From the NCBI GenBank assembly GCA_965230935.1, contig OZ246400.1, positions 438,359 through 502,358 of the forward strand: 64,000 nucleotides of DNA, written 5' to 3'. Positions 12,425 through 62,934 of this stretch are shown piece after piece (within the stretch, counting starts at the first letter, position 1; every line of letters starts with the position of its first letter). The position numbers and the translations under genes were made by a program. The notes below the pieces were generated by a model that worked only from the letters and a program-made list of their open reading frames with translations, did no database searches and had not been told where the DNA came from. The DNA is from an uncultured Gammaproteobacteria bacterium (GTDB taxonomy: Bacteria > Patescibacteriota > Patescibacteriia > Magasanikbacterales > JBBTQS01).

Positions 12425-12522
12425 AGTACCCCCAGCTTACCACTGGTTGACATGCAGTGCAAAATGGTGTATTTTGGGGCCACCATGCGGCAAACCAAAG
12501 ACCAAAGAGGAGGGCTACACGC

Positions 12523-13506
12523 ATGAATGATCAACAAGGGTGGTATGCACGGGCGCTACCTCCCTCGTACGTGGAAGGCGGAGGCAGGCTCATTAGAGTA
12601 TGCAGCGACGGATCCCATATGCGTCTTTGCGTGATCTACGTTGCGCACCATCCCAGCGGCATGCCGGGCAAGATCACGCCGGCGGTCTTCACCGCTGAGC
12701 TGGGGGAGGCGCCGAGCGATTTGGCAAGGCAAGTGCGTGCGCTCTACAAGAGCCTTGGGGGAAACCCGAAGGTGTTGGGCGAACATTTCCTGAGCCGGCT
12801 CGCGTCGGAGCTGGAATTCGAACGCTTGTGCGAAGACGTACGAACCCGGCAAATCCCCATGGGCGCGACGCCTGAGGGAGCTGTGGTACACAAGTTCGAT
12901 GAGGATGACGTCGTCATCGACATCACGTTCGCACAAGAGGACGGCGAGGATCCACTCGACGACCGCCACCAAGAGACCGCTACGATTCCTGACGACATTC
13001 CCACCGCAACGCCAATGCGCGCGACGGTGACCCATGCTCGGATTGTCTCGGACTCGCACTATGTGGGACAGGTGGGCTGCCACGACTTTGGCGACATGGA
13101 CTTCCCGGTCGGGCTCGCTATGCTCGTCGAGGGACATCTGCGATCCGCCAGTCCGGGTGGGAAGGCAGTGCTCATGCTGATGAGCAACCAAGTCGGGTCA
13201 GCAGCCACGTACGCCGAGAAGTACCTGGGAGCGATCCCCAACGGGCCGGCTCTGGACGAGGTCACACTCTTCGTGAGTCACATCGACCCCGATGCCTGGG
13301 ACGAGCTCGAGAGGTTGTTGGCCAGCATGCGAGAATGCGGCTTCCCGCTGCAGATAAGCGCGCTGGGTCCAATGCCGGTGAGCAAGCCTGAGGAACGCAC
13401 AACGCCGACGCGCGAGCCGACGCCCAAACCTCAGGATGAGCCGAAGGATACGAGACCGACGTCCTCCGTTGGCTTCATGTGGCAGGGCAACCACAACATT
13501 CAATAA
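12523..13506 (+). CDS. High-GC (about 62%) hypothetical protein, likely horizontally acquired
   Basis: ATG 12523 with GAGGAGG SD 8 nt upstream (listed GTG start 12457 less likely); GC-rich codon usage contrasts with flanking dnaE/pheT; no recognisable domain. Confidence 0.5.
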   Translation: MNDQQGWYARALPPSYVEGGGRLIRVCSDGSHMRLCVIYVAHHPSGMPGKITPAVFTAELGEAPSDLARQVRALYKSLGGNPKVLGEHFLSRLASELEFERLCEDVRTRQIPMGATPEGAVVHKFDEDDVVIDITFAQEDGEDPLDDRHQETATIPDDIPTATPMRATVTHARIVSDSHYVGQVGCHDFGDMDFPVGLAMLVEGHLRSASPGGKAVLMLMSNQVGSAATYAEKYLGAIPNGPALDEVTLFVSHIDPDAWDELERLLASMRECGFPLQISALGPMPVSKPEERTTPTREPTPKPQDEPKDTRPTSSVGFMWQGNHNIQ

Positions 13507-13567
13507 CACAACACCACAACGCAACCCCTCCTTACCAGGAGCGGGTTTTGCAATTACCGCTGTTTCT

Positions 13568-17504: not shown

Positions 17505-18590
17505 TTAGTTTACCAGACGAACAATGTCACGATAGGTCACTAGAATAATCAATCCGATCAATAGAACAAACCCTATCATGTGCACGATGCCCTCGATCTG
17601 CGCACGCACCGGTTTACCGCCACGAATCTTTTCAATCAGCACAAACAAGATGCGACCGCCGTCGAGTGCTGGGATTGGCAAAATATTGATAATCGCCAAA
17701 TTAACTGACAGAAATGCCATAAATTGCAGCAATGCTACAAACCCGAGTTGGGCAACTTCTCCGGTGATTACAGCAATGCCAACTGGTCCGGCAACTGCCT
17801 CGCCCACTGACTCACCAGCGATCATCCGTCGAATCAATCCACCAAGGCCTTCGAAAATCCCAGTGGTCATGTTCCACACTTCGGTCACTCCTTTGTATAG
17901 TGCCACATGAACTGGATACGACACAACCCCGGTTTCATCAACTATTATCCCAAAACCAACTTGATCAGTATCTGGGATTGGCATGGCATTAATCGTGTAG
18001 TTAACAAACATCCCGTCACGTTCAACTACAAGTTTGCGAGCCTTATCAGGGTCTTGAGCCGCCACTTCATGAAGCTGAGCAACCCCAACGTTCCCCTCCA
18101 CTCCTTCGAGCTCGATGAGCAGATCACCCGCTTCAATCCCAACAGCACTCGCGGCACCTCCCTCAACCACCATCACCACTTCAGATTGATGATTGGTAAC
18201 CGTAGCACTCGGGTCAACCGGGCCAGTAATACGACGCTGCACACCAGCACCCATCACAATCTGCATTAACACAACGGCGACCAGAATATTCATAATCACC
18301 CCGGCAGCCAAGATTAATACGCGCTTGCTCGCTGATTTGTGTCCAAAACTATCCTCATCTACTGCCTGCTCGCCATTCTCTCCTTTGATTTTGACAAATC
18401 CGCCAAAGGGCAACCAGTTGAGCGAATATAATGTCTTGCCTTTTTGTACACCAAAAATTCGCGGTGGAAATCCAAACCCAAACTCATCCACTTGGCAGCC
18501 AAAGTACCGCGCGACAATAAAATGCCCAAATTCATGGGCAAGCACCAACAGTGCCAAAATCACGATAAAAATGATAATGGTCGTTACCAT
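17505..18590 (-). CDS. rseP: RIP metalloprotease RseP (site-2 protease, M50) with PDZ domain
   Basis: HEFGHF (HExxH) in first TM, PDZ region, LDGG motif; 361 aa. Confidence 0.8.
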   Translation of the reverse strand: MVTTIIIFIVILALLVLAHEFGHFIVARYFGCQVDEFGFGFPPRIFGVQKGKTLYSLNWLPFGGFVKIKGENGEQAVDEDSFGHKSASKRVLILAAGVIMNILVAVVLMQIVMGAGVQRRITGPVDPSATVTNHQSEVVMVVEGGAASAVGIEAGDLLIELEGVEGNVGVAQLHEVAAQDPDKARKLVVERDGMFVNYTINAMPIPDTDQVGFGIIVDETGVVSYPVHVALYKGVTEVWNMTTGIFEGLGGLIRRMIAGESVGEAVAGPVGIAVITGEVAQLGFVALLQFMAFLSVNLAIINILPIPALDGGRILFVLIEKIRGGKPVRAQIEGIVHMIGFVLLIGLIILVTYRDIVRLVN

Positions 18591-18728
18591 AGTGAGGATA
18601 TTGTACCGCTAATCGTTGGCTGGGGCAATGGTTGTGTGCGCATACGTATTAAATCCTGTTTCTTGACAAAACCACTAATTTAAATTAAAAAGGAGCTTAC
18701 CGGCAATCACGCCGAGGAGGAGGATTCC

Positions 18729-19385
18729 ATGTCACACCGACTGTTATTTGGGGGCACAGCTTTGCTGGCTTTGGTGCTCTTTGGCCCCATCATGTTCTTC
18801 TACGTGGTAGAGGAAAACCCGGAAGCTAAGGTCACCACCTTCAGTGAGGGCCGTGAGCGCACCGATCCGATGCTCTGGAGCGCAGCGATCTGCGCCAACA
18901 CCGGCGGGACCGAGCTGTTGGTGAAGTTCCATCGCAACACCGACTACCCCGAGGCCACACTGCTTCCGGACCCGAAGATCCCTGAGGGGTGGGTGTGCGG
19001 CATGTACCAGAGCCCTTGGCCGGTTGCTGGGGTGGACAAGGAGCTGCTGATCGTTGAGGATCCGCCCAAGGACTTTGCCGGGCTTCTGGTGTGTCCGGAC
19101 ATGGTTCCCAGCCGGGACGATGGTGTTGGGGTGCACCAGACAATGTGCACCGCGCTGACGCGGCAAAGCAACCGACAGGGCGACCTGCACTACGAGCTGT
19201 ACTTCCTGGCCGAAGATCCGGAGCGTGAGGGTCCTCAGCCGCCTATCGTGCGTATCAAGTGCCACGATGTACGCGAGCGTGAGCGTGCTGCAGCACAAGC
19301 AGCGCAAGCGATGACCGGCGACACGCCATCGGAGAGAGACTTGAAGGATCAAGACAACGAACCGGACGAGAGTTCGGTACCGTGA
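18729..19385 (+). CDS. High-GC hypothetical TM-anchored secreted protein (island gene 1 of 2)
   Basis: GAGGAGGAGGA SD upstream; N-terminal TM LLFGGTALLALVLFGPIMFFYVV; GC-rich codons; 218 aa. Confidence 0.5.
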   Translation: MSHRLLFGGTALLALVLFGPIMFFYVVEENPEAKVTTFSEGRERTDPMLWSAAICANTGGTELLVKFHRNTDYPEATLLPDPKIPEGWVCGMYQSPWPVAGVDKELLIVEDPPKDFAGLLVCPDMVPSRDDGVGVHQTMCTALTRQSNRQGDLHYELYFLAEDPEREGPQPPIVRIKCHDVRERERAAAQAAQAMTGDTPSERDLKDQDNEPDESSVP

Positions 19386-19531
19386 TGATCCCACCCGGCA
19401 TGCCGCCGATGAATGATGAGGAGCTCCGCGAGTACCGTGAGACCATGGCAAAATGGGCGCCGCGAGTAGTACTCTTCAACACAGCACTACTACTCATCGG
19501 ATTATGTCTCTGGTACCTCTTCGAGGGGTAA
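19385..19531 (+). CDS. High-GC 48-aa single-TM peptide overlapping upstream stop by 1 nt (TGATG), translationally coupled (not in ORF track because under 60 aa)
   Basis: MIPPGMPPMNDEELREYRETMAKWAPRVVLFNTALLLIGLCLWYLFEG; followed by CA-rich tract and terminator. Confidence 0.35.
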   Translation: MIPPGMPPMNDEELREYRETMAKWAPRVVLFNTALLLIGLCLWYLFEG

Positions 19532-19563
19532 CCTCTCCCACCAACAAACACACAACCAGAAAA

Positions 19564-19606
19564 GCCGCCTGACGATCACTGTGATCGCACACCGACGGCT
19601 TTTTTG
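19564..19606 (+). terminator. Rho-independent terminator ending the high-GC two-gene cassette
   Basis: GCCGCC...GATCACTGTGATC...GACGGC hairpin followed by TTTTTT (19600..19606). Confidence 0.5.
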
Positions 19607-19615
19607 AATCTACCC

Positions 19616-20926
19616 TTATAATTTCGCTACCAACTTTTTAAATAGATCTCCTCGCGCAAATTCATTAATTCGCGGTAACCACGTCAGACCAGGTGAGAGC
19701 AATACCACATCACCTTTGCGCGCCAATCGTGAAGCCAGCAATACCGCCTCTTGTAGATCAACCACTTCAATGCCTTTTGCAAGTTGTCCATTTGCATTTC
19801 CAGGCAACACAATAATCTCTTTTGCTTGACGTTTCATTACCCGTCGCAGCTCAAATAAATCAGAACCTTTAGAATTACCGCCACTAATATGAATGATACG
19901 TCCCTTTGGGAAACTCATCAGCCCGGCGATCGCTCCTTCGGGTGATGTTGCGGTCGAATCATTGTACCACTGCACACCCCGCAACGTTCGAATAAGCTCT
20001 AAGCGATACGGCACCCCAGAGAATCCTTTAACTCCTTTGATAATCGCGGTGTTATTCACTCCATATGCTTGTGCTGCAAGCACCGCCCCCATAATATTTG
20101 CCTCGTTGTGCTGTCCTAATAGTTGGGACGCACGTAGAAATTTGGCAAACCGCTTCGTGTCTCGCTTTGGCGAAAATGGTTGCAACGTGCCCTTGCCGAC
20201 TTTAGCGTGCTTGCGCACCACAGGATCATCTTTATTGATAATTGCCACATCGCCCTCTTGCTGATACGCGAACACTTTTTGCTTATCAGCGATATACTCT
20301 TTCATCCCTTTGTATTTGTTGAGGTGATCAGGATACAAATTAGTCCATACACCGATGTGCGGCGACTTGCGCAAACCGGAAAAGTTATGCAACAAAAAAC
20401 TGGACAACTCGAGCACTACCGGAGTTCCAGACTTAAGTGCGTTTAAAAACGTGAGTGGTGAAACACCGACATTCCCCCCAATCTTGGCGTTTGGATTATG
20501 TTGTAATAGCATTTGATGAATCAGATGCGTTGTGGTCGTCTTTCCGCGCGTACCGGTCACACCAATGACATGCTCCACACCATACAAGCGCAAAAACAAC
20601 GTTACGTCATTATCAACTCGAATCTTGTGCTTGCGAGCCAACGCCAGATATGGACTACTTGCCGGAACATCCGGATTACGTACCACTAAATCGGTTTTGA
20701 TAAAATCCGCTTCTCGATGTCCACCAAGACGATATACAATGTTTGAAAACTTGGCCAAAGATTTGAGTGGTTTTTTAAGCTCATCGCGCGTCTTCATATC
20801 GGTCACAATCAACTTTTTGCACCGAGGTGCTAAAAACTTTGCCGCACTCATCCCACTGCCTTTAGCAAAACTACCAAGCCCCATGAGGGTTATTGTTTTT
20901 CCTACAAATGACTCGGTGTATTTCAT
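19616..20926 (-). CDS. murD: Mur ligase, most like UDP-N-acetylmuramoylalanine--D-glutamate ligase MurD
   Basis: N-terminal LMGLGSFAKGSGMSAAKFL Rossmann-like, GVTGTRGKTTTT P-loop; start reassigned to MKYTESFVGK (20926). Confidence 0.55.
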   Translation of the reverse strand: MKYTESFVGKTITLMGLGSFAKGSGMSAAKFLAPRCKKLIVTDMKTRDELKKPLKSLAKFSNIVYRLGGHREADFIKTDLVVRNPDVPASSPYLALARKHKIRVDNDVTLFLRLYGVEHVIGVTGTRGKTTTTHLIHQMLLQHNPNAKIGGNVGVSPLTFLNALKSGTPVVLELSSFLLHNFSGLRKSPHIGVWTNLYPDHLNKYKGMKEYIADKQKVFAYQQEGDVAIINKDDPVVRKHAKVGKGTLQPFSPKRDTKRFAKFLRASQLLGQHNEANIMGAVLAAQAYGVNNTAIIKGVKGFSGVPYRLELIRTLRGVQWYNDSTATSPEGAIAGLMSFPKGRIIHISGGNSKGSDLFELRRVMKRQAKEIIVLPGNANGQLAKGIEVVDLQEAVLLASRLARKGDVVLLSPGLTWLPRINEFARGDLFKKLVAKL

Positions 20927-34933: not shown

Positions 34934-34994
34934 AATCAAAACGACCCGACTGTTTGTCGAGCCATCCTGGTTGTGTTGTGTAATGTAGTGCGGC

Positions 34995-35294
34995 TTACCG
35001 CGTGCGGGCGCGGGTGCCGGACTTGATTCCCTGACCAGCGTGAAGCGTGTCGGTCAGGTTGTACCCGGCGAGCTGTGGGAACCGATCGGTGTACTGCTTG
35101 GCCACCAGAGTACGGCGCTCCAGTGGAGCCCGACGCACCTGCGAGCGTGCCAGCAGAGCCGCGGCCTTGACTCGGCCGTTGTCGATCTCGCGCCTGATGG
35201 CGCCACCCATGGCAATCACGGTCTGTGTATTGCCACCGACACGCTGCTCACGGGTGAGCCGCTCGTCTACCGGTAGTGGGATACGTGCTCCCAT
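34995..35294 (-). CDS. High-GC small basic protein B (100 aa) of a two-gene overlapping cassette
   Basis: MGARIPLPVDERLTREQRVGG...; ATG overlaps upstream stop (TGATG); downstream CA-rich tract ACACAACACAACCAGG + hairpin + T-run. Confidence 0.4.
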   Translation of the reverse strand: MGARIPLPVDERLTREQRVGGNTQTVIAMGGAIRREIDNGRVKAAALLARSQVRRAPLERRTLVAKQYTDRFPQLAGYNLTDTLHAGQGIKSGTRARTR

Positions 35295-35551
35295 CAGATC
35301 TTCCCCCTCATGCGTCGACGCCCAGCGCGACCGGCCTGTACTGGTGCCGGCGGCGCCATGCGCTGCAGGTGCCGCTCCAGCCGATCGGCCTCGCGATCGT
35401 TGCCGCACGCCCGAAGCCGCTCGATCACCGCGTTCCCCGAGACACGCTCGGTACGCAGCGACATCGCCGAAGGGAGCGATCGTGGCGCCTCCCCATGTGC
35501 CGCGCCTCCAGCAACTGGACCGCGGCTATGCCCAATGGATTCTTCACCCAT
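35294..35551 (-). CDS. High-GC small protein A (85 aa) of two-gene cassette; possible TA/regulatory pair (unassigned)
   Basis: ATG 35551 with GAGGAG SD 9 nt upstream; MGEESIGHSRGPVAGG...RLERHLQRM; GC-rich. Confidence 0.4.
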   Translation of the reverse strand: MGEESIGHSRGPVAGGAAHGEAPRSLPSAMSLRTERVSGNAVIERLRACGNDREADRLERHLQRMAPPAPVQAGRAGRRRMRGKI

Positions 35552-35671
35552 GGTTGTTTCTCTCCTCTTACTCTTTTTGATGTAAAGACTTCATGTCTAA
35601 ACGAAAACAGCGAGCGTTCCTCATGTAACCCGCTGGAAAAAGTATACTAATATTATAAAAAAAGTCAAGTA

Positions 35672-49248: not shown

Positions 49249-49290
49249 TCCCCGTTGTTGTGACTCGGCGAAGAAGCGTTCGAAGAGTGG

Positions 49291-50226
49291 CTAGCTCCTC
49301 TTTTTCTTCTTGCGTGAGCCGCCGCCCTTGCCCCGGAACGCCGCCATGAGCTTCATGCGGTTCTCCAGCGAGATGTCGGCCCACTTCTCGTCGGTCATCA
49401 TCTCGGCGAAGGCTTTGAAGTCGGCCATCTTCTCCGGCGTCATGTCCCCCACGTGAGCCGGAGTGGTGGAGCGAGGCTTCGCGGTCTGCTTGTGCTCGGT
49501 CTGCACCGCCACCACGCGAAACCCGCAGGTCTTGGGCAGTGGATCACGGCCGTCCACCACACCCGGATCCGGGTCGCTGGTGTTGCAGCCACTGACCACG
49601 GCGGCCTTGAGCGTGTCGTCCATGGCCTGGAGCTCGTCCAGCGTCGGCTTCTTGTCCAGACCGTCGATGAACCGCTTGAGCTCGAACGCCGCCTTACGCC
49701 AGGCCGCGTCCACGATGGCCGCCTTGCCGTTGTCGCCCTTCTTGACGTCGGCGTGGTTCATCAGGTACTTGGCGCACTGCGCCATGGCCGGACCATCACC
49801 TGTGTTGAGCCGCACGCTGAACTTGATCGCCGCCGTAACGTTGGACCCGTCGTGCGCCACGTACTTGATGTGCGCCAGGCAGGCGAACATCCAGTTGTTG
49901 GGACACACGAAGGTCTGGTGACGCAACATCGCGCCGCCAGGCACGAAGTGCTTGCCCCGACCACCGGTGTTGCTCTGGAACGGCCGCACCAGGTCGCCAT
50001 CGCTGTCCACCGCGATCCCCATCTTGCCCGACGGGATGATGAACTCGGACTTGAAGTAGTAGCTGATCGCCAGGATGATCCCGAAGATCGCAATGCCGTA
50101 CCCGGGGACGTCCGGGCTGATCCAGCCCTTCCAGGCGCCAAGCACTGCTGCGATCGCCGTCACGACGAACGCGGTGAAGTAGCTGCGCCAGTCCCATCCC
50201 TCTTTCTTGCTCAAGATGCTCTGCAT
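49291..50226 (-). CDS. High-GC membrane protein with SPFH/band-7-like core (tentative), 2 N-terminal TM, basic tail
   Basis: IIPSGKMGIAVDSDGDLVRPFQSNTGGRGKHFVPGGAMLRHQ...AAIKFSVRLNTGDGPAMAQ resembles SPFH beta-rich core; GKGGGSRKKKKRS tail; 311 aa. Confidence 0.35.
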   Translation of the reverse strand: MQSILSKKEGWDWRSYFTAFVVTAIAAVLGAWKGWISPDVPGYGIAIFGIILAISYYFKSEFIIPSGKMGIAVDSDGDLVRPFQSNTGGRGKHFVPGGAMLRHQTFVCPNNWMFACLAHIKYVAHDGSNVTAAIKFSVRLNTGDGPAMAQCAKYLMNHADVKKGDNGKAAIVDAAWRKAAFELKRFIDGLDKKPTLDELQAMDDTLKAAVVSGCNTSDPDPGVVDGRDPLPKTCGFRVVAVQTEHKQTAKPRSTTPAHVGDMTPEKMADFKAFAEMMTDEKWADISLENRMKLMAAFRGKGGGSRKKKKRS

Positions 50227-50682
50227 CTTATCCTCCCTCTGTGTGTGGTGTGTAGTGAATCTTCTTCGCCGATCTGCATTGTTTAAAGAGCTGCTTCTGC
50301 AGCAAACAATGAAGTTTGTCGCTTCTGCAACCGTATATCATATCATAATTTGGTGTTTTTGTCAATATTAATTTAGCTAAAATAAGATAAAATCCTAAAA
50401 TAAGTCACAAACTATGCACAGAAAAGCCTTTGTTTGCTGGGTTTTCTATTGACAGAGGGGTACTGTTTTGCTACTGTAAAAGTGACTAAATGTGTCAAAT
50501 AGTTCTTTGTAAAAAGTTGCAAAATCGCACCGGAATGAGGAGTGCAAGCTCATCACTCTAGCGCGATTTTGCAACCAAGAGGGAAAGCCAACCACTTGTA
50601 GTCGTTCTGCTGGAGGTCCCGGGTGGGGCCTGCGACAGGAGTTGCGCCAGGCCACACTCAGACCTATCGGGGGAAAGAAACG

Positions 50683-51531
50683 ATGAAGACCAGGACCCTT
50701 TCGACCATGGCCGTGCTGGCGGCTCTGGTGCTCGCGGGCTGCGCCGCTGAGGCGCCGACCGACGGCAACATGACGCCGGACCAGCAGATCGACCAAAAGA
50801 CGTTCACCGTGGAGGTGGTCGTCGAGCACGCCCAGAATCGTGTGGGCAACGCCGAGGTCACGGCGATGACGCACGGCGCGGTGGCGTACACCGACCACAA
50901 CGGGGTGGCGACGTTCGACAGTCTGCCGGCCGGGCCGGAGACGTTCAAGGTGGACGCGCCGACCATCGAGAAGCCGCTGTACGTGGACGTGAACGTGGGC
51001 GAGGACGACGCGCCGATCACGACCGAGACCGTCACGATCGACCCGGCCGACGCCACCGACACGCCGACGCCGAGTGACGACACCTCGCCCATCGCCGGGC
51101 TGGATCCGGAGCTGGACGAGTACGTCAAGATCGGGTGGGCCACGTGGCTGAGCTTCGACGCCGAAGGCGCGCAAATGGCCGGCGGTGGGCCGAACGACTG
51201 GTACGAGATCGGGTACAACGCCAAGCAGGGCGCGTACAAGATCTACGACCAGGGTCATCCGTTCAGCACCAACTACATCGACACGATCGCCTGCTTCGTG
51301 GAGGTCAAGTCGGACTGCGGTGCTGAGGCGTGCCTGTCGTGCGAGGACCTGATGGTCGGCAACAAGGGGTTCTACTACTCCACCATCGGCACGGTGAGCG
51401 AGAACGGCCACAAGTTCGAGTTTAGCTCAACCAAGACCACGGGAAGTGGGACCGATCCGGTCGGAACAGACGTGTTCACCCTGGAGACCGACCCGGACGG
51501 GAACTACTTCGAGGGCTACGGCGACGAGTAG
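50683..51531 (+). CDS. High-GC secreted lipoprotein A (lipobox LAGC) with N-terminal Thr/Asp/Pro-rich region and 141-aa C-terminal 4-Cys domain shared with lipoprotein B
   Basis: MKTRTLSTMAVLAALVLAGCAAEA; start reassigned to ATG 50683. Confidence 0.5.
   Translation: MKTRTLSTMAVLAALVLAGCAAEAPTDGNMTPDQQIDQKTFTVEVVVEHAQNRVGNAEVTAMTHGAVAYTDHNGVATFDSLPAGPETFKVDAPTIEKPLYVDVNVGEDDAPITTETVTIDPADATDTPTPSDDTSPIAGLDPELDEYVKIGWATWLSFDAEGAQMAGGGPNDWYEIGYNAKQGAYKIYDQGHPFSTNYIDTIACFVEVKSDCGAEACLSCEDLMVGNKGFYYSTIGTVSENGHKFEFSSTKTTGSGTDPVGTDVFTLETDPDGNYFEGYGDE
51101..51525 (+). repeat. Direct repeat copy 1 (425 bp, identical to 51866..52290), encodes shared C-terminal domain
   Basis: read base-by-base against copy 2; identical protein-level ORFs also appear in all overlapping frames of the ORF track. 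Confidence 0.85.
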
Positions 51532-51585
51532 TCCCTGAAGACCTGGCCTGGTCAACTCCCTCACACAACTAACACACAACAAGAA

Positions 51586-51619
51586 AACCCCCAGCAGACT
51601 GCTGCGGGTGTTCTTTTTT
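51586..51619 (+). terminator. Rho-independent terminator CAGCAG-A-CTGCTG + T9 after lipoprotein A (preceded by CA-rich ACACAAC tract)
   Basis: perfect palindrome 51591..51603, T-run 51611..51619. Confidence 0.55.
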
Positions 51620-51628
51620 TAGTAAACT

Positions 51629-51657
51629 ATTGCATTTACAATCGCTTTTATCTACAA
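51629..51657 (+). promoter_or_regulatory. Sigma70-like promoter TTGCAT-17-TACAAT for lipoprotein B (AT-rich segment inside high-GC island)
   Basis: hexamers 51629..51634 and 51652..51657; AAGGAGG SD before ATG 51691. Confidence 0.4.
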
Positions 51658-51690
51658 TCACCTAAGGCACAGGCAAAGGAGGAAACAGCC

Positions 51691-52299
51691 ATGCCATACC
51701 GATATGCGATGGGCTTCGTGCTCATGATGCTCTTGAGCACCTGCGCAGACACGACGTCCAATGAGGATGGGCGTCCTCATGGACTGACCTCTGATCCCGG
51801 CCTGTTTACGAACGAAGACGCCCGACCATGGTCACCCAGCCTCACCGGCAATCCGATTGATGGCATGGATCCGGAGCTGGACGAGTACGTCAAGATCGGG
51901 TGGGCCACGTGGCTGAGCTTCGACGCCGAAGGCGCGCAAATGGCCGGCGGTGGGCCGAACGACTGGTACGAGATCGGGTACAACGCCAAGCAGGGCGCGT
52001 ACAAGATCTACGACCAGGGTCATCCGTTCAGCACCAACTACATCGACACGATCGCCTGCTTCGTGGAGGTCAAGTCGGACTGCGGTGCTGAGGCGTGCCT
52101 GTCGTGCGAGGACCTGATGGTCGGCAACAAGGGGTTCTACTACTCCACCATCGGCACGGTGAGCGAGAACGGCCACAAGTTCGAGTTTAGCTCAACCAAG
52201 ACCACGGGAAGTGGGACCGATCCGGTCGGAACAGACGTGTTCACCCTGGAGACCGACCCGGACGGGAACTACTTCGAGGGCTACGGCGACAACCAGTAG
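51691..52299 (+). CDS. High-GC secreted lipoprotein B (LLSTC lipobox-like) with the same 141-aa C-terminal 4-Cys domain
   Basis: MPYRYAMGFVLMMLLSTCADTT; perfect AAGGAGG SD; 202 aa. Confidence 0.5.
   Translation: MPYRYAMGFVLMMLLSTCADTTSNEDGRPHGLTSDPGLFTNEDARPWSPSLTGNPIDGMDPELDEYVKIGWATWLSFDAEGAQMAGGGPNDWYEIGYNAKQGAYKIYDQGHPFSTNYIDTIACFVEVKSDCGAEACLSCEDLMVGNKGFYYSTIGTVSENGHKFEFSSTKTTGSGTDPVGTDVFTLETDPDGNYFEGYGDNQ
51866..52290 (+). repeat. Direct repeat copy 2 (425 bp identical to 51101..51525); downstream about 80 bp also about 90% similar including terminator
   Basis: see copy 1. Confidence 0.85.
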
Positions 52300-52403
52300 T
52301 CCTTGAAGGCCTGGCCTGGTCAACTCCCTCACACAACCCAACACACAACAAGAAAACCCCAGCGAACTGCTGAGGGATTTCTTTTTTGTAAAGAGTTTTA
52401 TGA

Positions 52404-62347: not shown

Positions 62348-62934
62348 ACCACAACGCTCCCTTGCCGCAGAACATCAATCTTCTTATCTCGCACCCGCAC
62401 AATGGTGGTTGATGGGATCATCTCAAGTTCACCAGCATCAAGGTAGGCAGCAATCGCCACATCAGCAAACTGTCGCTGAACACCATCAATGGTGTAACAA
62501 CTTGGCTTGTTTGAAATGTTAGCGCTGGTGGAGATAATCGGCTTACCAAGTGCAGCGCATAGTGCTTGGGCAATTGGTGATCCAGATACCCGTAGCGCGA
62601 TAGAACCATCATCGGCAATCACATGCGGCGAGATGCCGGTACCTTTTTTGGCCGGCAATACCAATGTCAATGGACCTGGCCAATGTGCATCAATGATCTT
62701 TTGCGCTGACGCGCTGATATTAACAATTTGTTTTGCCATGGCAAGATTAGCGACAATAACCGGCAACGTAACTCCTTCTGATCGTTGTTTTGCGGCAAAA
62801 ACTTTTTGTACTGCTTCGTGATTAAACGCATTTGCTCCAAGACCATACGAGGTCTCGGTTGGATACACCACCAATTCCCCGGCACTCAAGTGCGCCGCAG
62901 CATTGACAATGTCTTGCTGTTGGATATCAGTCAT
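62344..62934 (-). CDS. tsaC: L-threonylcarbamoyladenylate synthase, YrdC/TsaC family
   Basis: VVYPTETSYGLGANAF YrdC signature; 196 aa; 4-nt overlap with rsmA. Confidence 0.75.
   Translation of the reverse strand: MTDIQQQDIVNAAAHLSAGELVVYPTETSYGLGANAFNHEAVQKVFAAKQRSEGVTLPVIVANLAMAKQIVNISASAQKIIDAHWPGPLTLVLPAKKGTGISPHVIADDGSIALRVSGSPIAQALCAALGKPIISTSANISNKPSCYTIDGVQRQFADVAIAAYLDAGELEMIPSTTIVRVRDKKIDVLRQGSVVV

Follow-up and report, generated by a model that had tools for sequence, protein, structure and literature searches.

An orphan gene pair of deviating composition between rseP and murD in the genome of a member of the Patescibacteria

The window analysed here, 64,000 nucleotides of contig OZ246400.1 (assembly GCA_965230935.1), contains two GC-rich genes in the spacer between the housekeeping genes rseP and murD, and the question that this locus raises is how such a pair came to lie there and what it might do for the cell. 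The segment, here called island 2 (18.70-19.50 kb), comprises ~0.97 kb and carries both genes in the orientation opposite to murD and rseP. Members of the candidate phyla radiation (CPR) or Patescibacteria are tiny and host-dependent, and it is poorly understood how new surface functions are gained and expressed in them. Genomic islands and gene transfer have been documented in Patescibacteria (PMC12455944). We consider it probable that island 2 is an accessory unit, complete in itself and gained by horizontal transfer, that resembles a phage moron but is located in the chromosome of a small-genome member of this group. It would thus represent a complete foreign expression unit between essential genes, equipped with a ribosome-binding signal that the host genes almost never use.

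Both open reading frames (ORFs) of island 2 are read as coding. Gene 1 (18729..19385, plus strand; ATG at 18729, TGA at 19383-19385) encodes an orphan protein of 218 amino acids (aa), and gene 2 (19385..19531, plus strand; ATG at 19385-19387) an orphan of 48 aa. The sequence reads TGATG at 19383..19387 on the plus strand, so that the stop and start codons share a single base, the A. This pair of overlapping genes had been proposed, at the same positions, by a first-pass annotation of the window, and it is confirmed here, with both ORFs resembling real genes in their codon-position GC and in a codon model. GC at codon positions 1, 2 and 3 amounts to 0.66, 0.44 and 0.73 for the 218-aa ORF and to 0.59, 0.39 and 0.65 for the 48-aa ORF. 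With a codon model trained on the remaining island genes of the window (described below), the annotated frame was the best of six for both ORFs: the longer one scored +0.19 per codon against -0.17 to -0.52 in the other five frames, the shorter one +0.02 against -0.11 to -0.61, and 0.2% of the nucleotide shuffles of the 48-aa ORF matched its real score. An antisense ORF of 235 aa was considered as the true gene and ruled out by its shadow-frame pattern (GC at position 1 above that at position 3) and by the codon model. The small gene had been expected to escape routine annotation, but both genes are listed among the public gene calls for the ENA/NCBI source contigs, and the 48-aa product is already contained in the protein collection.

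Inspection of the start context of gene 2 revealed an alternative in-frame start, GTG at 19382, and no separate Shine-Dalgarno (SD) sequence. Its translation is therefore most likely tied to ribosomes that terminate on gene 1, and we infer that the two genes are translationally coupled. The absence of an own SD and of any homologue also agrees with a different reading, according to which only the 218-aa gene is real and the 48 codons are a chance open frame in a 3' untranslated region (UTR) of ~170 nucleotides (nt). By our own estimate, 48 codons stay open after a given ATG with a chance of ~0.2 in DNA of 55% GC, and a resemblance of the peptide to an 81-aa protein of a related contig (see below) is not significant on a realistic background. 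A chance frame would, however, hardly be expected to start in an exact TGATG overlap, to be the best of six with so few shuffles scoring as well, to keep the codon-position GC given above, and to encode a clean membrane helix at the C-terminus, with positive residues on the N-side. Moreover, the terminator is placed after gene 2 and not after gene 1, and the TGATG-coupled layout of two genes is repeated in island 3 of the window. We thus regard an untranslated small ORF as unlikely, but give it the greatest weight among the alternatives discussed here, followed in descending order by a conflict module, a link to RseP, and inert or decaying DNA or an artefact.

The gene pair is furnished with its own set of putative expression signals. 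A strong SD sequence, GAGGAGGAGGA (18714..18724, plus strand), is located 4 nt 5' of the gene-1 ATG, and, as noted in the first-pass annotation, it is preceded by an AT-rich region (GC 0.38-0.40). Within this AT-rich sequence a candidate promoter (18663..18691, plus strand) is composed of a perfect -35 box, TTGACA (18663-18668), a spacer of 17 nt and a weak -10 box, TAAAAA (18686-18691); its use is plausible but not established. The candidate promoter of island 2 and that of rseP stand back to back, ~35 nt apart. At the other end, an intrinsic terminator hairpin that had not been mentioned before (19557..19606, plus strand; -21 kcal/mol, z = -6.0, none of 200 shuffles as stable) starts 26 nt after gene 2 and leaves a distance of 10 nt to the stop codon of convergent murD. 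It has an A-tract and a T-tract on its flanks and is bidirectional in form. The 3' UTR furthermore contains a C/A-rich element (19535..19563, plus strand) with ACACAAC at 19550-19556 and a 17-mer, AACACACAACCAGAAAA, at 19547-19563, which recurs after genes of island 4. If these signals act as predicted, the TTGACA-type promoter and the strong SD would drive one bicistronic messenger RNA (mRNA) ended by the strong terminator, and ribosomes finishing the 218-aa gene would restart at the overlapping ATG to produce the 48-aa peptide in a fixed ratio. Island 2 is also surrounded by a perfect 10-nt inverted repeat, whose left arm, TGGTTGTGTG (18629..18638, plus strand), adjoins the -35 box of the divergent rseP promoter and is the reverse complement of CACACAACCA, the right-hand motif at 19549-19558. 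A flanking inverted repeat of this length was obtained in 4 of 300 shuffles, and its significance is uncertain. Neither a transfer RNA (tRNA) nor a direct repeat was found at the island boundaries; a search against Rfam identified only the four tRNAs of the window and nothing in island 2 at E <= 1, and a promoter scan detected no minus-strand promoter-like site inside the island.

The gene pair is a foreign insert, because its GC at third codon positions (GC3) deviates from that of the host, its strong SD is nearly absent from host genes, and the corresponding gap in the closest relative is free of genes. The GC content is 0.61 in island 2 versus about 0.46 in its flanks, and along the locus it changes from 0.38-0.43 (18550-18750) to 0.60-0.66 (18800-19450) and to ~0.40 after 19550. 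GC3 amounts to 0.73 in gene 1 and 0.65 in gene 2, compared with 0.41±0.04 (range 0.35-0.48) in the host genes of the window. When SD 5-mers were scored in the 20 nt upstream of each start, with the final 3 nt excluded, they were present in four of six island genes (AGGAGG-type) versus one of 33 host genes (Fisher p = 9e-4). Several host genes instead have a TACAAT or TATAAT box 9-15 nt upstream of the ATG, which suggests that their mRNAs might be leaderless or have a very short leader; the host starts inspected in this set of 33 include those of rseP (18590), recG (37744) and radA (33611) and the start at 62934.

Comparison with related genomes shows that island 2 is inserted at this site relative to them. 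Its left flank is rseP (17505..18590, minus strand), encoding an M50 site-2 protease, and its right flank is murD (19616..20926, minus strand), which is convergent with island 2 and has its stop codon at 19616; beyond these two genes, the neighbourhood includes pheS, pheT and a gene of the PGM family (phosphoglucomutase/phosphomannomutase). The order PGM (where the contig reaches that far)-murD-rseP-pheS-pheT is kept in three relatives, L002 to L004. In the closest of them, L002, the murD-rseP gap measures 264 bp versus ~1,025 bp in the window, is AT-rich and lacks a convincing ORF. The nearest genomes are CPR/Patescibacteria assemblies, several of them mislabelled, with Falkowbacteria, Magasanikbacteria and Buchananbacteria as the informative labels, and the best RseP identity is 60% in genome contigs and 45% in metagenome contigs. 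A strain-level empty site was not found among the genome and metagenome contigs searched. The same spacer contains an unrelated, cytoplasmic-looking ORF of 194 aa on the host strand in L003 and a different cassette in L004 (733-1663; ~930 bp), which is mildly GC-enriched and located on the strand opposite to rseP. The L004 cassette has a TTGACA box, GGAGG sites, a terminator and a 3' UTR with CAACTAACAC, a 10-mer identical to that of island 4a, and its ORFs encode 81 aa with two membrane helices, ~20 aa, 33 aa, and 42 aa with a single helix (starting MIIPP...). The 48-aa peptide of island 2 was considered as a homologue of the 81-aa protein on account of a pairwise BLASTP match (E = 4e-4); as the 81-aa protein was not among the top phmmer matches of the peptide against 28,157 six-frame ORFs, homology was rejected as unproven.

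The neighbouring protease could in principle explain the position of the unit. As a rule, proteases of the RseP type cut type II single-span proteins and break down small membrane proteins (PMC10470546). Both island-2 products, predicted from hydropathy and charge to be single-span proteins with the N-terminus inside and the C-terminus outside (N-in/C-out), might be substrates or modulators of the divergently encoded RseP, with the murD-rseP spacer as a preferred home of small membrane proteins. The back-to-back promoters would fit this idea, as would the corresponding spacer of L004, which holds other short ORFs with membrane helices (81, 33 and 42 aa) on the same strand. Yet the site is empty in L002 and holds an unrelated, cytoplasmic-looking protein gene on the other strand in L003, while the other islands of the window, which have the same frame of signals, adjoin the unrelated genes dnaE, radA/recG and a TrbL-like gene. 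The adjacency to rseP is therefore most simply an accident of insertion, and a functional link between the pair and the protease appears very unlikely.

The deviating composition might also have been caused by faulty assembly or binning, or the insert might be functionless foreign DNA that is silenced or decaying. The orphan status of both proteins and the weak -10 box could be cited in favour of this view, as could the fact that two of three sample assemblies break within gene 1, at 19155-19219. Both junctions, rseP-island and island-murD, are nevertheless reproduced at 99.9-100% identity in three separately assembled samples of one project, so that island 2 is not an assembly chimera. In ERZ930061 one contig ends at 19155 and the other starts at 19173, which leaves a gap of ~18 nt and no alternative sequence. 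Three clustered non-synonymous differences (R149P, Q150P and Y155S) at the contig end in ERZ930061 are due either to local microdiversity or to a contig-end error, and the sole other variant among the assemblies is synonymous (18911 C>T). No literature on the project accession, PRJEB17505, was found. Apart from these differences the sequence is identical in the three samples, both ORFs are intact and have a strong coding signal, and the SD and terminator are intact as well; we therefore consider decay or artefact highly improbable.

The product of gene 1 starts with MSHR, followed by a hydrophobic helix of 23 residues (residues 5-27), the sequence EENPE, an acidic domain, a further helix and an acidic disordered tail. 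The domain spans ~150 residues, has a net charge of -12, contains 10% proline and five cysteines, and is predicted to be beta-rich; this secondary structure was taken from low-confidence models, whereas the membrane helices were assigned by hydropathy and charge. Hydropathy bears out the membrane helices of the first-pass annotation, N-terminal in the larger protein and C-terminal in the 48-aa product. Its description of the larger protein as secreted is not supported, however: residues 5-27 lack a small-residue cleavage motif and look more like an N-in/C-out signal anchor than like a signal peptide that is cleaved, so that the ~150-residue domain is predicted to lie outside the cell. The 48-aa peptide consists of MIPPGMPPMNDEELREYRETMAKWAPR, a 19-residue helix (residues 28-46; hydropathy 2.24 over this 19-residue window) and a terminal EG. 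Its N-terminal 27 residues are proline-rich and charged, with K23 and R27 just ahead of the helix. Owing to these positive charges on the N-side of the helix, the N-terminus should be cytoplasmic and the peptide is probably tail-anchored in N-in/C-out orientation. While the observation made in the first-pass annotation is confirmed, its interpretation is thus supported in part.

Both proteins are complete orphans. A word-indexed search of 5.8 billion proteins and clusters returned only the query for either of them, an exhaustive phmmer search of 1.84 billion representatives matched the 218-aa protein only to itself, and both are found in single-member clusters. Neither protein has a family match in Pfam, PHROG, NCBIfam or PADLOC (E <= 1) or a sequence match in the PDB. 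Searches of viral contigs by protein, of phages and plasmids by blastn and of phages by tblastn also yielded nothing similar. Thus the homology searches that the first-pass annotation had called for identified neither relatives of the two proteins nor homologous cassettes in the databases. Single-sequence AlphaFold2 models of the 218-aa protein reached a pLDDT (predicted local distance difference test) of 47.6 for the full length and 49.2 for the ectodomain alone, and a Foldseek search of the PDB with these unreliable models gave a best E of 1.0 and nothing below.

If the predicted topologies are correct, both products would enter the cytoplasmic membrane N-in/C-out; the larger protein would present its acidic, beta-rich, cysteine-containing domain on the cell surface, and the 48-aa peptide could serve as its tail-anchored membrane partner, with the 27-residue N-terminus in the cytoplasm. 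AcrZ, MgrB and CydX are examples of small membrane proteins of bacteria that act as partners of larger ones. Gene 2 resembles these in its product of ~50 residues with a single membrane helix and in its position next to a gene for a larger membrane protein with which it is predicted to be co-expressed, but it is unrelated to them in sequence, its helix is C-terminal, and the presumed partner is itself an orphan. An accessory function in the cell envelope, such as host-cell contact or the exclusion of phages or other foreign DNA, appears most likely.

A more specific proposal, close to the immunity- or chaperone-like module suggested in the first-pass annotation, is that the pair acts in conflict, either by excluding phages or foreign DNA or as a toxin with an immunity or regulatory partner. 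The peptide might then act on the larger exposed protein as a neutralising or regulatory factor, or might itself be a membrane-active toxin. A foreign and variable unit resembling a moron, in which the gene for a larger anchored or exported protein is tightly coupled to that for a small membrane protein, would suit such a role, and small inner-membrane proteins encoded by morons, for instance HK97 gp15, are known to block superinfection (PMC3594210). Nevertheless, neither protein matches a family of PHROG, Pfam or NCBIfam or, with E values up to 1, an anti-phage defence system of PADLOC, and neither a toxin domain nor a double-glycine leader, a transporter or an antisense RNA signal turned up. 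As a hydrophobic peptide of fewer than 60 aa with a membrane helix, the 48-aa product is reminiscent of type I toxin-antitoxin systems, but the island has neither a minus-strand promoter-like site nor an Rfam match (E <= 1), and the peptide appears to be translationally coupled to an upstream gene. Furthermore, classic type I toxins have an N-terminal helix, whereas that of the peptide is C-terminal. On balance, a conflict module seems distinctly unlikely.

The closest parallel to the acquired accessory unit that we favour is found in phages. Morons are defined as obvious additions of deviating GC that come with a promoter and a terminator of their own, and they often encode small membrane proteins, for example the exclusion protein HK97 gp15 (PMC3594210). 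Like a moron, island 2 constitutes additional DNA that separates two genes lying next to each other in relatives (L002), deviates in GC from its flanks, has a strong terminator as well as a promoter-like sequence of its own (with a perfect -35 box and a poor -10 box, and not called by the scan), and encodes predicted small membrane proteins of accessory function. It differs from morons by its location in a bacterial chromosome between housekeeping genes, with no phage genes nearby and no similarity to PHROG families. With the genomic islets and islands of Patescibacteria (PMC12455944) it shares a deviant composition, a lineage-specific occurrence and a streamlined CPR genome as its setting. 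Unlike these, island 2 is very small (~0.97 kb, two genes) and GC-richer than the host, lacks an integrase, a tRNA and direct-repeat boundaries, and is one of several mini-cassettes that have non-coding signals in common and no protein similarity.

Several points weigh against this interpretation. The candidate promoter was not called by a consensus promoter scan and has a poor -10 box. High GC is limited to the coding part, while the promoter region and the UTRs are AT- or CA-rich, and a simple transfer of the whole segment from a donor therefore does not explain island 2. Comparison with viral, phage and plasmid collections yielded no donor, and neither protein has homologues in the collections searched. 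No mobility gene was found near island 2, and an integrase was absent among the 16 proteins of the window that were scanned with Pfam, which do not represent all of its genes. Lastly, with low-confidence structure models and an empty fold search, the function of the unit is purely a matter of inference.

By itself, island 2 would be one more pair of uncharacterised orphan genes, a frequent result. However, its frame of non-coding signals is common to at least three other orphan cassettes within the 64 kb. Island 1 (12.47-13.57 kb; 12457-13567), between dnaE and a DUF948 gene, encodes an acidic orphan of 327 aa (GC3 0.73). As it is missing at the syntenic site of L003 (L003 10694-11320), its insertion is specific to the lineage of the window. 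Island 3 (34.91-35.62 kb; 34934-35671, minus strand), between radA and recG, contains the second coupled pair, with ORFs at 35551..35294 (85 aa) and 35294..34995 (99 aa) that overlap in TGATG. It has a TTGACT-17-TATACT promoter-like sequence, the SD AGAGGAGA before the first ORF, ACACAACACAACCAGG after the ORFs and a terminator; its proteins are Arg-rich, have no membrane helix evident by eye and gave no match in Pfam, the only search run for them. Island 4 (49.2-52.4 kb; 49291-52299), between a TrbL/VirB6-like gene of 950 aa and an ORF of 2,792 aa, comprises three orphan genes with GC3 0.83-0.92, which encode a 311-aa protein with N-terminal hydrophobic segments and two lipoprotein-like paralogues (50683..51531 and 51691..52299) with a common 3' part of 495 bp, 98% identical and including the 3' UTR. 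Except for these paralogues the island proteins are mutually unrelated, and they have no family matches; those of islands 1, 4b and 4c, three proteins that were looked up or searched in large collections, have no relatives there. Comparable GC-rich segments are rare elsewhere, with 11 weaker ones in the 1.3 Mb of related loci.

The elements of the common frame are distributed as follows. A TTGACA or TTGACT box is present upstream in islands 1, 2, 3, 4a and 4c and was not identified for 4b, and a strong SD stands in four of the six scored start contexts, those of islands 1, 2, 4b and 4c, and not in 4a or before the coupled 48-aa ORF. In each of the GC-rich island units, CACAAC occurs once or twice in the interval from the stop codon to the terminator hairpin, with CACAAC/ACACAAC sites at 13506-13520, 19547-19563, 34967-34981 (minus strand), 49250-49262 (minus strand), 51562-51587 and 52330-52356. 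ACACAAC occurs 14 times on the two strands of the window, and eight of these copies are found in the ~360 nt of island 3' UTR. The 17-mer AACACACAAC[C/A]AGAAAA has exactly three occurrences, after island 2 and after both lipoprotein paralogues of island 4. According to counts made with a crude terminator finder, CACAAC is located upstream of all four detectable island terminators, of none of the 34 terminator-like sites elsewhere in the window, and of three of 970 such sites in 155 related loci. To our knowledge, a recurrent 3' element of this kind has not been described for morons. A phage origin of the motif was rejected, as its 22-mer had no match in viral contigs and the 99 matches of the 17-mer there were chance-like, none of them in a terminator context. 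Terminal inverted repeats were likewise discarded as a common signature of mobile elements: in addition to the repeat around island 2, a perfect 12-nt inverted repeat brackets the island-4c gene (49265-49276 and 50261-50272; none in 300 shuffles), but only these two islands have significant repeats, and their sequences differ.

Islands with a GC3 of 0.73 and of 0.83-0.92 carry the same 3' element, which argues for a common vector, a common step of installation or processing, or local adaptation, and not for a single donor. A far-reaching explanation, which we put forward with considerable reservation, is that the four islands, and probably the L003 and L004 murD-rseP cassettes, are products of one undescribed process of cassette delivery or domestication in this CPR lineage. 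Such a process would place unrelated foreign ORFs, mostly for envelope proteins, between housekeeping genes and provide them with a standard expression frame of TTGACA promoter, strong SD, CACAAC element and terminator; the CACAAC element could then be a signature of recombination, processing or regulation, and the island-2 pair one payload among others. Integron cassettes offer a partial analogy, in that the units of the window are short, contain one or two unrelated orphan ORFs and have a conserved structured 3' element. In contrast to integron cassettes, however, most of the units carry their own TTGACA/TTGACT box, and they are scattered among housekeeping genes at 12.5, 18.7, 35 and 49-52 kb instead of being arrayed by an integrase. 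Also, neither RYYYAAC nor the GTT of a GTTRRRY core exists on the coding strand of 19532-19615, where the hairpin is a plain terminator with a T-run. If the frame does mark a common mechanism, it would represent a new route of gene addition to streamlined genomes and provide a handle on accessory envelope genes that are invisible to protein homology.

Two further features of the island UTRs were observed. The leader of the island-4a gene, ~200 nt long, contains a hairpin (50516-50575) with arms of 27 nt (81% complementary) and a 6-nt loop, which had no match in the Rfam scan of the whole window at the gathering threshold and may be regulatory. In several island 3' UTRs there are CCUCC-like stretches (CCCCTCCT, CCTCTCCC, CTCCCTC and CACCTC; 13525-13535, 19532-19545 and 51548-51560 in the window and about 745-760 on the minus strand of L004), which are complementary to the strong SDs of the same units and could possibly permit pairing between 5' and 3' UTR or mimic an anti-SD sequence.

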